A DNA stretch of 64,000 nucleotides from a virus (taxonomy: Duplodnaviria > Heunggongvirae > Uroviricota > Caudoviricetes), in the IMG/VR virus record IMGVR_UViG_2939521961_000009. One strand, given 5' to 3'. The notes under the pieces were generated by a model, which had not been told where the DNA came from, ran no database searches, and saw only the letters and a list, made by a program, of their open reading frames with translations. The translations under genes and the position numbers were made by a program. Below are positions 27,358 through 30,132 of this stretch, piece after piece (position 1 is the first letter of the stretch; each line of letters begins with the position of its first letter).

Positions 27358-27527
27358 TGGATAAAGAGCCTGTTTGCCCTGCCTGTAAGACTCCCTTACA
27401 GCTCATCTATCGCCGTTCTCGATCTCAAAATGGCAAGACATACAAACCAAAAAATGCTTCCTGTTTCAGGATGCTGATATGTCCTGCCTGTTCTCCCCGG
27501 AGGGAAAATACACAAAACGTGCATTAA
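27358..27527 (+). CDS. Small zinc-ribbon protein (56 aa, two CPAC motifs)
   Basis: Strong RBS AAAGGAG 8 nt before the ATG; CPAC...CPAC. Confidence 0.4.
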
Positions 27528-27535
27528 CAAATTCA

Positions 27536-27557
27536 CCCGGCAGGGAAACCTGCCGGT
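27536..27557. terminator. Hairpin between convergent genes (8-bp stem CCGGCAGG/CCTGCCGG, GAAA loop)
   Basis: Perfect inverted repeat read directly. Confidence 0.4.
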
Positions 27558-27565
27558 CGGTATTG

Positions 27566-27811
27566 TTACATCATAGTACCGTCAGTTCCGGGTTGAACCG
27601 GCTCTGGTTGCTCTACGGGTTGAGGCTCATTTTCCGTGCTGTTTTCAGCCGGAGAACGACCAACCATTCGGGCCAGCACTTCATCAACATATGCGTCGAT
27701 TTGTGCCTCAAAATCCTTGCGAACCTGCGCCTTCAGCACGCGGTTCACTTCTTCAGAATAAAGTGCCTGTTTGACAAGCTCTTCAGTAACCGTGCCTTTA
27801 ATCTCTGGCAT
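27566..27811 (-). CDS. Hypothetical protein, 81 aa, acidic Pro/Glu-rich C-terminus
   Basis: AGGAG 7 nt before the ATG. Confidence 0.5.
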   Translation of the reverse strand: MPEIKGTVTEELVKQALYSEEVNRVLKAQVRKDFEAQIDAYVDEVLARMVGRSPAENSTENEPQPVEQPEPVQPGTDGTMM

Positions 27812-27846
27812 GAATATTCTCCTTTCCTTTTCTGGTTCACAAAAAA

Positions 27847-28026
27847 TTAAATCTGACCGGAGTCTTTCGGCTGCGGCATTACAGCACCGCTTTTTATCTT
27901 TTCCTCGGCAGCTGCATCAATTTTATTTCGAAAATAATTGCGAATAATTTTATAACCACCGCTGACAAGCAACAGACAACAAACCACCGTGCAGAAATAC
28001 AGCAGGCAGACGTTTATATATGTCAT
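27847..28026 (-). CDS. Candidate small membrane protein (59 aa, N-terminal TM helix)
   Basis: Hand-translated ORF below the track cutoff; weak GAGG RBS. Confidence 0.3.
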   Translation of the reverse strand: MTYINVCLLYFCTVVCCLLLVSGGYKIIRNYFRNKIDAAAEEKIKSGAVMPQPKDSGQI

Positions 28027-28083
28027 ATAAGCCTCACTCTTATTAACTGATGTTACAGCCGGATAAATTCCCGGCCGTCACGA

Positions 28084-30132
28084 TTATGCCGCAGGGGTAT
28101 TAACCTCAAGGACAACGCTCTCAAAAGACACGCCATAAGTTGCCCCTTTGGTGACATCTGTCAGTGTCAGCGTATCTTTGGCAGGGGAAAGTGCATCTTT
28201 CACCATCTGGAATGCCTGGCCCGGAGTGCCATCCAGCACAGGCGTTACCTGGGCACTTCCCGCCGTAAACTTCAGGACAAGTGTATGCCACTGGTTATTG
28301 TAGGCTCCAAATGATCCCAGTTTCGTATTCCCCCCTGTTTTATGGTGCATCAGATTTAACTGGCCGCCTGTTGTCTGGAGATAATACGCCATCAGGAACG
28401 GTGTGCCTGTACCACTCATGGTTACACCTTCCGGGACCGTATCGGTGTGGAGGTAAATACCCAGAGCAAACTGGCCTTCTTTTACTTCACCTGACAGACG
28501 GAATTTACAGGTCAACTGACCACCATGCTTCAGAAGTTCACCGGCTGCATCAGTTCCATGGGTAAGCGTCCAGGTTTTTCCGCTTTGTTTGGATACGGTC
28601 AACGCTTTACCTTCGTCCGTCAGCTGGATTGTACCATCTGTAATTTTCCAGCCCTGAGCCGGGGCTTCTCCTGCTGATGCTTTAAGTGAAAGCAGCGTAC
28701 GGAGTGACGGGGATGTCGGATGGGGGGACTCACTGCCTCCTGGCTGACTACCTGTCGGCGCTTCCGGTTTCCCACCCGGCGCGGGCTGAGGCAGGGCTTC
28801 ACCATCAGGGGCCACACCGGCAATAAATGCAGAGGTCAGACCTGCATATTTAAGAATTGCTGATGCAAAACGATCTGAGACCAGAAAACGGCGCGCCCAG
28901 GAGCTAAAATGGGTTGCCCTGGATGCTGTTGTCCAGTTGCCATCTCCCCGTGATTCCGCACCATAATACCCGGCAGAAGCGATATCCGGGTCGTGCTCCG
29001 GCAGGTTGGTCGCGGTTTTATTACCGAACTCATCGTGCATCAGTGGAACAAAGTGAATGTTCTCGGAAGCCCGGTTTTTATATCCGCTATAAATGGTTTC
29101 ATATGCCGCCGGGTTCTTCTCTTTCCAGTCATAGGTTGTGTCACCACATAACCACGGCACACTGTCTGATGAACCACCAATACACTGACCGGAGAAAGCA
29201 CCAAGATCCGCACGGAATTTTTTCACCATCGCAGTAAACTGGGCACCATGCTGGGCCGGGGTCGCTTTAAGGTCTCCTTCCCCCTGAATCCATACGACAG
29301 ATAACAGCACATTCTTTGGATTCGCCTCAAGTGCCGCTTTAGTTCGACTGACAAGATCCTGATACAGTGGGGTATCCACTCCCCAGCGTAGTGACGCCTC
29401 GGCTGCACCACTTGCCGGATCGAATGAGCCAACTGCGCCGGTTGTAAAAGCAGAGCCGCCACGGGCACAGGGAACCAGTAAAATCCCGGCATCAGCAGGA
29501 ATCACCGGTAATACTTTTTTCGCAATATGAAGTCCCTGCCCCACACAACCATACTGCCCTTTTTTCAGGTCTGCTTTTGGATGGTTCAGCAGACTCATAT
29601 TCTGAACATCATGAAGGCAGTGATCTGCTGGAATGATTTCATTGTATTTGCAGGGAATACCTCCGGGGGTTTGTGTATTCCTGCGTGCCAGCTGCATAAT
29701 ACGTGGATCAGGACGATCATAAGAATCCGGAAGGGGCAACCCTTCACCATAAGATGAAGCATTGGACTGGCCGGCTATAACAATCACGTAATACCAGGAA
29801 GGGGAGCTGGAAGCAGTTTCATTTCCTGACGGACGGGTATGTGTTTCAGCATTATCCCAGTCTGACGGTTCAGCAGTACCGGCAACATCAGCACTTAACG
29901 GAATGACCGCACCAATACCCGCTCCGGTAATTTCCACACTCGGATCACCGGATACTGGCCTTACCCACAGGCAATCCCGTGTATTAAAACTGATGAGACA
30001 GTCAGCAAATGTCATTCCTCCTTTTGTTTCGGCCGGAGGAAAGGGAGCCTCAAGAAATGCCGCTGTACCACCGGAAACTTTAACAGTAAAGTTTCCGGGC
30101 ATTGATGATAGTTGAACCCATTTGGACGTCAT
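28084..30132 (-). CDS. SASA/SGNH-type carbohydrate O-acetylesterase with N-terminal and C-terminal lectin-like domains, 682 aa (resembles prophage NanS-p)
   Basis: GQSN esterase motif at residues 121-124; three-domain layout as recalled for EHEC prophage NanS-p. Confidence 0.7.
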   Translation of the reverse strand: MTSKWVQLSSMPGNFTVKVSGGTAAFLEAPFPPAETKGGMTFADCLISFNTRDCLWVRPVSGDPSVEITGAGIGAVIPLSADVAGTAEPSDWDNAETHTRPSGNETASSSPSWYYVIVIAGQSNASSYGEGLPLPDSYDRPDPRIMQLARRNTQTPGGIPCKYNEIIPADHCLHDVQNMSLLNHPKADLKKGQYGCVGQGLHIAKKVLPVIPADAGILLVPCARGGSAFTTGAVGSFDPASGAAEASLRWGVDTPLYQDLVSRTKAALEANPKNVLLSVVWIQGEGDLKATPAQHGAQFTAMVKKFRADLGAFSGQCIGGSSDSVPWLCGDTTYDWKEKNPAAYETIYSGYKNRASENIHFVPLMHDEFGNKTATNLPEHDPDIASAGYYGAESRGDGNWTTASRATHFSSWARRFLVSDRFASAILKYAGLTSAFIAGVAPDGEALPQPAPGGKPEAPTGSQPGGSESPHPTSPSLRTLLSLKASAGEAPAQGWKITDGTIQLTDEGKALTVSKQSGKTWTLTHGTDAAGELLKHGGQLTCKFRLSGEVKEGQFALGIYLHTDTVPEGVTMSGTGTPFLMAYYLQTTGGQLNLMHHKTGGNTKLGSFGAYNNQWHTLVLKFTAGSAQVTPVLDGTPGQAFQMVKDALSPAKDTLTLTDVTKGATYGVSFESVVLEVNTPAA

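Follow-up and report, generated by a model that had tools for sequence, protein, structure and literature searches.

A probable accessory operon encoding a three-part NanS-p-type sialate O-acetylesterase between gin and com-mom in Sp18-family Mu-like prophages

The 64,000 nt stretch of phage DNA analysed here (IMG/VR record IMGVR_UViG_2939521961_000009; hereafter the window) carries a Mu-like prophage on its minus strand, in which MuA, MuB, the Mu portal, MuF, gpT, the sheath, Gin, Com and Mom were matched in Pfam. The region of interest lies between the G-segment invertase gene gin and the com-mom genes. An earlier note, made from the sequence alone, had described about 3.3 kb of cargo at this point where gin and com-mom are nearly adjacent in Mu. 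This is borne out: the gin stop and the com start lie ~3,281 bp apart in the window and 94 bp apart in Mu (AF083977), where the gap contains the mom promoter alone. The open reading frames (ORFs) of 682, 59, 81 and 56 aa that the note had placed in the region are all present, and only the start of the convergent 56-aa CxxC ORF was off by one (27357-27527 is correct). The features of the module are given below in window positions.

28084-30132, minus strand: esterase ORF of 682 aa, from the ORF listing
29893-30132, minus strand: N-terminal beta-barrel of the esterase (residues 1-80), specific to Mu-like phages and not DUF1737
29788-29892, minus strand: linker (residues 81-115), Ser/Thr/Pro/Gly-rich by composition and disordered (AlphaFold 2 (AF2) predicted local distance difference test (pLDDT) 39-52)
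28843-29787, minus strand: catalytic domain of SASA/SGNH type II (residues 116-430), with Gln122, Ser123 and His408
28087-28701, minus strand: C-terminal lectin-like jelly-roll domain (DUF6645; residues 478-682), from PDB 6YP6 and Pfam DUF6645
27847-28026, minus strand: DUF1378 (PF07125) gene, single-pass membrane protein of 59 aa (Pfam E 9e-24, 83.8 bits, cut-off 25; phrog_494)
27566-27811, minus strand: DUF826 (PF05696) gene, acidic helical protein of 81 aa (Pfam E 3e-15, 56.5 bits, cut-off 25; phrog_311)
27537-27556, unstranded: GC-rich hairpin with an 8-bp stem between DUF826 and the zinc-ribbon ORF, CCGGCAGG-GAAA-CCTGCCGG
27357-27527, plus strand: 56-aa CxxC...CxxC (zinc-ribbon) ORF with an AAGGAG ribosome-binding site
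27221-27250, minus strand: intrinsic-terminator-like hairpin at the module end, 13-bp stem and T-run (-22.1 kcal/mol, z -5.4)
30133-30231, minus strand: gin-esterase intergenic region of 99 nt, with no convincing terminator (fold z only -2.1) and, among promoter-like matches, weak ones only
27826-29790, unstranded: exchanged segment (DUF1378 and the catalytic and C-terminal parts of the esterase), which defines the window allele

Taken together, the data suggest that the region is probably a fixed accessory ('moron') operon of Sp18-family Mu-like prophages encoding a three-part NanS-p-type sialate O-acetylesterase. The enzyme family, the gene triad and the prophage are already known and annotated. 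Nothing in the literature searched links NanS-p with Mu-like phages, and within it three things appear to be undescribed: a Mu-specific N-terminal domain where lambdoid NanS-p has DUF1737, the fixed location between gin and com-mom, and the exchange of cassettes with lambdoid alleles.

The assignment of the large protein as a NanS-p-type SASA esterase, which the earlier note had proposed, noting a GQSN motif, is upheld by the PDB and Pfam matches. The motif lies at residues 121-124. Residues 104-429 match E. coli NanS (PDB 3PT5; E 3.2e-110), SASA is matched in Pfam with E 1.6e-13 (51.3 bits, cut-off 24.8) and the protein matches phrog_143 with E 2e-273. In the 3PT5 alignment Ser123 corresponds to NanS Ser19, Gln122 to Gln18 and His408 to His301. 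NanS has a Ser19-His301 dyad with Gln18 in the oxyanion hole and lacks a catalytic Asp (PMC9063846), so the Ser-His-Asp triad by which the note had proposed to judge the protein is the wrong signature for this family; the applicable one, the Ser-His dyad with its Gln, is conserved here. The note had also described lectin-like domains on both flanks, and this holds for the C-terminal one. Residues 478-679 match the C-terminal domain of phi24B NanS-p (6YP6; E 9.6e-42) and DUF6645 is matched in Pfam with E 8e-26 (90.9 bits, cut-off 27). The N-terminal domain is a small beta-barrel for which there is no lectin evidence. Four aromatic residues of the phi24B C-terminal domain are candidates for binding sugar (listed in PMC10462455); by a manual count in the 6YP6 alignment three of them are kept (Y510, as F, Y515 and Y540), with F611 falling in a gap.

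The esterase is without a signal peptide. RefSeq starts the window allele at Met11 (672 aa) and the O157 allele at Met1 (30103-30132); the Met1 start (682 aa) is supported because Trp5 and other residues before Met11 are conserved in Shigella and Salmonella homologues. It is very improbable that these ORFs are the non-functional leftovers of a decaying remnant. Decay would fit the truncation of the esterase to 318-523 aa in a few IMG/VR copies and the 'frameshifted' label of the plus-strand gene in RefSeq, but full-length ORFs of 679-693 aa with intact catalytic residues are found in most loci and genomes, and the architecture is kept at N-domain identities of 60% and even 29%, which implies purifying selection.

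The closest known systems differ from the window esterase in architecture or position. NanS-p of the lambdoid phages (for example 933W L0105/ST933Wp42 and phi24B gp84/vb_24B_21) has the same SASA/SGNH type II domain and DUF6645 jelly-roll, likewise lacks a signal peptide and is likewise followed by DUF1378 and then DUF826 genes. It carries DUF1737, however, where the window esterase has a beta-barrel of ~80 aa unrelated to it in sequence or fold, and its gene lies in the Q-dependent late operon between stx and the holin gene S, whereas the window gene lies between gin and com-mom of a Mu-like myovirus. The chromosomal 9-O-acetyl-N-acetylneuraminate esterase of E. coli, NanS (YjhS; 3PT5), is ~55% identical to the catalytic domain but, unlike the three-part window esterase, consists of one domain (326 aa) and is controlled by NanR. 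The haemagglutinin-esterases of influenza C virus and betacoronaviruses also join a viral SGNH sialate-O-acetylesterase to a lectin (fold relation, PMC9063846). This is a functional analogy only; there is no homology beyond the SGNH superfamily.

The earlier note had left the small partner genes without an assignment. Two can be named: the 59-aa protein is DUF1378 and the 81-aa protein is DUF826, both of which also lie 3' of nanS-p in lambdoid phages. The gene order in lambdoid PhiR5_1 is Q, NanS-p (DUF1737-SASA-DUF6645), DUF1378, DUF826 and holin S; in 933W a DUF826 ORF lies between nanS-p and S, and DUF826 and DUF1378 ORFs have been described between nanS-p and S in lambdoid phages (PMC10462455). 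As the order esterase-DUF1378-DUF826 is equal in PhiR5_1, the Mu-like phage holds the lambdoid triad as a unit. Our best guess is that DUF1378 and DUF826 are accessory to the esterase rather than to lysis. In the 148-aa ST933Wp43 of 933W (L005 5020-5466) the DUF826 match is confined to residues 59-126, and the N-terminal part of that protein may be a mis-joined or degenerate DUF1378 region. No protein of the module was matched in NCBIfam or PADLOC, so there is no sign of a defence system, and Rfam gave no matches in 25900-31000.

A megablast search with 27000-30300 against 5,426 complete E. coli genomes found the module with its flanks in ~217 of them. Among the matches listed that span the module, the esterase, DUF1378 and DUF826 genes adjoin the recombinase (gin) gene in each. 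The N-terminal coding part is present in 205 of the genomes, at up to four copies per genome, and the matching elements are Sp18-type prophages. Sp18 of E. coli O157:H7 Sakai is a 38.76 kb Mu-like phage that is predicted to be intact and is efficiently packaged (PMC2669165, PMC7430833); its type of particle arises spontaneously and cannot be induced with MMC (PMC2669165). Sp18 and its relatives have the backbone, the module and its position in common with the window, whose allele is in the minority. Scanned with the N-terminal alignment, IMG/VR yielded 34 loci that have, within contig reach, a common order of fibre, (G segment and gin), esterase, DUF1378, DUF826, com and mom. The single exception is L026, in which com-mom is inverted and ~4.6 kb away. 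In a distant Salmonella Mu-like prophage (L008), an N-domain with 29% identity is joined to a SASA esterase downstream of gin, on a contig that stops inside the esterase.

By contrast, Mu, D108 and SfMu have gin, com, mom, MuA, MuB and structural genes in common with the window but no esterase. In the phage collection, tblastn with the esterase found none in these three or in Yersinia Mu-like phages, and its sole Mu-type matches were two Sp18-like insertions. The module is standard in the Sp18 family and is not strain-specific cargo. The earlier note's view of it as cargo of this element is not upheld, so the observation that it had named as refuting, that the region is standard in characterised Mu-like phages, was half made.

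Some of the IMG/VR loci depart from this arrangement upstream of the esterase. L025, L026, L030, L033, L036, L040 and L041 have no gin match and no inverted copy of the fibre, and in those examined (L025, L026, L033, L036, L040 and L041) most of gin has been lost by deletion, with its 3' end still present before the esterase, so these are deletion derivatives fixed in one host-range state. In the Salmonella relative L008, two ORFs of 58 and 87 aa with no Pfam match lie between gin and the esterase (9426-9910).

The window allele was compared in 100-nt bins with L003, the O157 Sp18-type copy. From mom through DUF826 (25931-27830) nucleotide identity is 95-100%. Across 27831-29730 it falls to mostly 30-70%, and the bin 29731-29830 is at 82%, after which it returns to mostly 97-100% across 29831-31900 (from esterase codon ~100 through gin and the G segment), the G segment having a single bin of 90%. 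The drops in identity are sharp, at ~27826 and ~29790. In the esterase protein, the first 116 aa are 100% identical to the O157 Sp18 enzyme and the remainder is ~55% identical; DUF1378, the catalytic domain and the lectin domain of the window are ~55-67% identical to that allele. The window allele of the exchanged segment (at least 95% identity) is present in 43 of the 5,426 genomes and all other copies are at most 69% identical, so the segment was not recently borrowed from a sampled lambdoid prophage. In a domain identity matrix, the catalytic domains of the Mu-borne and lambdoid alleles compared are 64-81% identical with no split by phage type. The Sp18-type protein is 81% identical to 933W in the catalytic domain and 78% in the C-terminal domain, while the window's C-terminal domain is 62% identical to a Stx1a-phage type and 38% to the Sp18 type. 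C-terminal types are therefore common to both phage types, whereas the N-terminal domain follows phage type. As judged from these comparisons, the segment of DUF1378, catalytic and lectin domains has been exchanged by recombination, with several alleles as the outcome, and its domains are shared with lambdoid NanS-p alleles.

These results also bear on whether the module could be a recent, strain-specific capture from a lambdoid (Stx-type) prophage residing in the same host, such as the one in which the Mu-like phage is housed. Such a capture would fit the insertion of the Mu-like phage in a lambdoid prophage and the lambdoid character of the gene triad, but we consider it highly unlikely. The module lies at one place across the Sp18 family and in the distant Salmonella relative, its N-terminal domain is unlike that of each lambdoid copy examined, and the exchanged segment is no more than 69% identical in nucleotides to the best non-Mu copy in the genomes searched. 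Additionally, the region recurs in identical form in a phage inserted in melA and not in a lambdoid prophage, and a repeat search found no flanking direct or inverted repeats or insertion sequence elements marking a cassette border.

The N-terminal domain is the part of the esterase that sets it apart from the lambdoid enzymes. It matches no Pfam family, and DUF1737 was not matched in the window esterase or in the Sp18-type allele in a scan that found it in NanS-p of 933W (E 4e-18) and of PhiR5_1 (E 1e-15). AF2 run on an alignment of three sequences predicts a six-stranded barrel for residues 1-78 (pLDDT 73-89), followed by the disordered linker; a single-sequence model of the 682-aa esterase had a pLDDT of 34 and was not used. 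The model is all-beta, in contrast with the one helix and three strands of DUF1737 (preprint 10.64898/2026.04.10.717836). Fold searches of PDB and BFVD with the domain returned just weak cupin-like matches or uncharacterised small phage proteins, and as histidine is absent from the domain, a catalytic cupin with metal-binding His/Glu motifs is unlikely. Searched exhaustively with HMMER, 1.8 billion representatives yielded five matches. Two of them (58% and 29% identical) lead directly into the AGQSN esterase motif, two are short N-terminal fragments and the fifth, a 1,445-aa repeat protein (P0005), was judged to be compositional. Word-indexed homologue searches yielded partial proteins only, and the alignment found no relative in the GTDB species-representative genomes. 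The domain was found in Mu-like contexts only.

In phi24B the DUF1737 domain of gp84, a NanS-p, is a capsid-decoration anchor that sits on the hexons, as seen by cryo-electron microscopy (preprint 10.64898/2026.04.10.717836). By analogy, the replacement of DUF1737 with a Mu-specific domain suggests that the Mu-type domain may be an anchor for a different particle. The esterase could then be displayed on the virion, its N-terminal barrel docking the esterase and lectin on the Sp18-type capsid or tail, and would serve the phage by adherence to or penetration of mucus, or by a receptor-destroying or receptor-unmasking activity. We regard display of this kind as possible but doubtful. Consistent with it, an unrelated folded domain and a flexible linker occupy the position of the phi24B anchor, and this domain tracks the Mu-like phage type while the catalytic and lectin parts shuffle with lambdoid alleles. 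The esterase gene also comes directly after the block of tail fibre, G segment and gin, and after the fibre genes in gin-deleted derivatives. However, the co-variation of the N-domain variant (100% versus 60% identity) with baseplate lineage is imperfect (L010, L015), and the esterase gene lies outside the known Mu late operons. Tentatively, NanS-p might be seen as a modular 'plug-in' decoration, the anchor of which is swapped for each phage architecture while the cassettes for enzyme and lectin move back and forth between lambdoid phages and transposable ones.

In the reading that we prefer, an accessory operon of the Sp18 family, the module would occupy the sole non-essential joint at the right end of the prophage, between gin and the mom control region. 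The catalytic domain would use the Ser123-His408 dyad with Gln122 in the oxyanion hole, and the lectin-like jelly-roll domain would keep the enzyme on sialoglycans. As there is no signal peptide, the esterase would act in the cytoplasm of the lysogen or after lysis. In the first case it may de-acetylate imported Neu5,9Ac2 and so open O-acetylated mucin sialic acid to the lysogen; in the second it would work outside the cell once the phage has lysed it. The lambdoid NanS-p enzymes are active on Neu5,9Ac2 and mucin, and lysogens grow on Neu5,9Ac2 (PMC8065619, a review). The DUF1378 and DUF826 genes would travel with the esterase as they do in lambdoid phages. Transcription would most probably enter from gin, which is active in lysogens, or start at a weak promoter in the 99-nt gap, where a -10-like element (TATGAT/TATTCT) keeps its register in both phage lineages. 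It would stop at the 27221-27250 hairpin, before the GATC-rich mom control region, and this terminator would also guard the tightly controlled mom operon from read-through.

It is unlikely that the enzyme targets bacterial glycans instead (O-acetylated O-antigen, K1 polysialic acid or colanic acid), which would help adsorption or release, or would change the surface of the lysogen for superinfection exclusion. The idea has been raised for NanS-p (PMC8065619), the gene adjoins the host-range module, and the lectin domain varies among alleles in the manner of receptor-binding proteins. Nonetheless, the catalytic domain is ~55% identical to the sialate-specific NanS, the characterised NanS-p enzymes act on Neu5,9Ac2 and mucin (PMC8065619), and the missing signal peptide puts the lysogen surface out of reach.

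Several points weigh against the accessory operon as we describe it. The window esterase lacks one of the four candidate sugar-binding aromatic residues, and its block IV reads RATH in comparison with RSSH or RASH in the characterised enzymes (PMC10462455). The activity of the Mu-borne alleles is a prediction from their sequences. A promoter scan gave matches at the level of chance (7 versus 5.5 expected), none of them confident, so that we can only infer expression in the lysogen. Finally, a purely metabolic role leaves the conserved, phage-type-specific N-terminal domain unexplained.

NanS-p is believed to make O-acetylated mucin sialic acids available to pathogenic E. coli as food, and it has so far been treated as a trait of lambdoid/Stx prophages. 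The data here show that a Mu-like family common in Shiga toxin-producing E. coli, and present in ~4% of complete E. coli genomes, holds its own stable version. Surveys of nanS-p copy number that recognise the gene by DUF1737 or by its proximity to stx would probably overlook the Mu-borne genes. The replacement of the N-terminal domain, together with the capsid-anchor preprint, leads to a direct, testable prediction as to which of the two, phage particle or lysogen, these enzymes serve.

The third small gene, the convergent zinc-ribbon ORF, differs from the triad in its distribution. The ORF is present as the earlier note had described it, but it is a lineage-restricted orphan in part of the family: its homologues are near-identical E. 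coli copies only, and of the 34 loci from IMG/VR it was detected in 10. No Pfam family was above threshold; the best was Trm112p-like at 16.8 bits (cut-off 22), and Com (PF10122) was not matched. In L014, L018, L020 and L023, which are without it, another convergent pair of ORFs lies between DUF826 and com (66-78 aa, MDKNKKQPDTKGLE..., and 68-76 aa, MDKLTTDQKLQAARIA...). With differing small ORFs in one slot, the site 3' of DUF826 is a variable spot for mini-cargo. RefSeq absorbs the 56-aa ORF into a 154-aa hypothetical gene (27065-27527, plus strand) that is 'frameshifted' in the window allele and intact in O157 (L003 3066-3530), the difference being a small indel near 27357. The 154-aa product is unlikely, as a conserved terminator hairpin lies inside the frame and its C-terminal part varies between loci. 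The good ribosome-binding site is on the short CxxC ORF alone, and with the hairpin inside the longer frame this suggests that the short ORF, if any, is the real gene.

The hairpin that the earlier note had placed between the convergent genes is real. Its folding energy is -20.6 kcal/mol (z -4.1) on one strand and -20.8 kcal/mol (z -4.7) on the other, and it co-occurs with the zinc-ribbon ORF in the IMG/VR loci. The note had overlooked another terminator-like hairpin, a stronger one on the minus strand at 27221-27250; it is conserved in loci with and without the zinc-ribbon ORF and lies just upstream of the mom control region.

The genes and control region on either side of the module are as follows.

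30232-30792, minus strand: gin, G-segment serine invertase, upstream neighbour of the module (Pfam Resolvase, E 1.4e-51, and HTH_7)
26996-27140, minus strand: control region upstream of com-mom, which has two GATC pairs and was compared with Pmom of Mu
26750-26950, minus strand: com, downstream of the module and overlapping mom (Pfam Zn_ribbon_Com)
26059-26796, minus strand: mom (Pfam Mom, E 8.5e-77), 79% identical to Mu Mom

The gin gene is ~76% identical in nucleotides to Mu gin over 30403-30791, and a 34-nt stretch at 30854-30887 matches the Mu G-segment boundary. The element was tested for the properties of a Mu-like (Sp18-type) phage, and it has the transposition proteins, a contractile tail, gin with an invertible fibre segment, and com-mom at the right end; outside the exchanged segment it is 92-99% identical in nucleotides to the O157 Sp18-type prophages. 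The earlier note was thus right that this is a genuine Mu-like genome without stx genes, and neither an stx gene nor a second NanS-p copy was found within the window.

The left end of the prophage is outside the window. The right end is at ~25930, as homology to other insertions begins at 25930/25931 and the LC727881 annotation agrees, and it interrupts the lambda-family portal gene of a lambdoid prophage. The first ~35 nt of the portal ORF as listed (24565-25965), including the ATG, are supplied by the Mu right end. The head genes of this host prophage are akin to those of mEp460 and Stx2a phages. Direct repeats at 25955-25977 and 25990-26012 look like right-end transposase-binding sites. In the com-mom upstream region, the proximal GATC pair is ~50 nt from the com start, in comparison with ~80 nt in Mu, and Dam- and OxyR-type control of mom may be arranged differently in Sp18-type phages.

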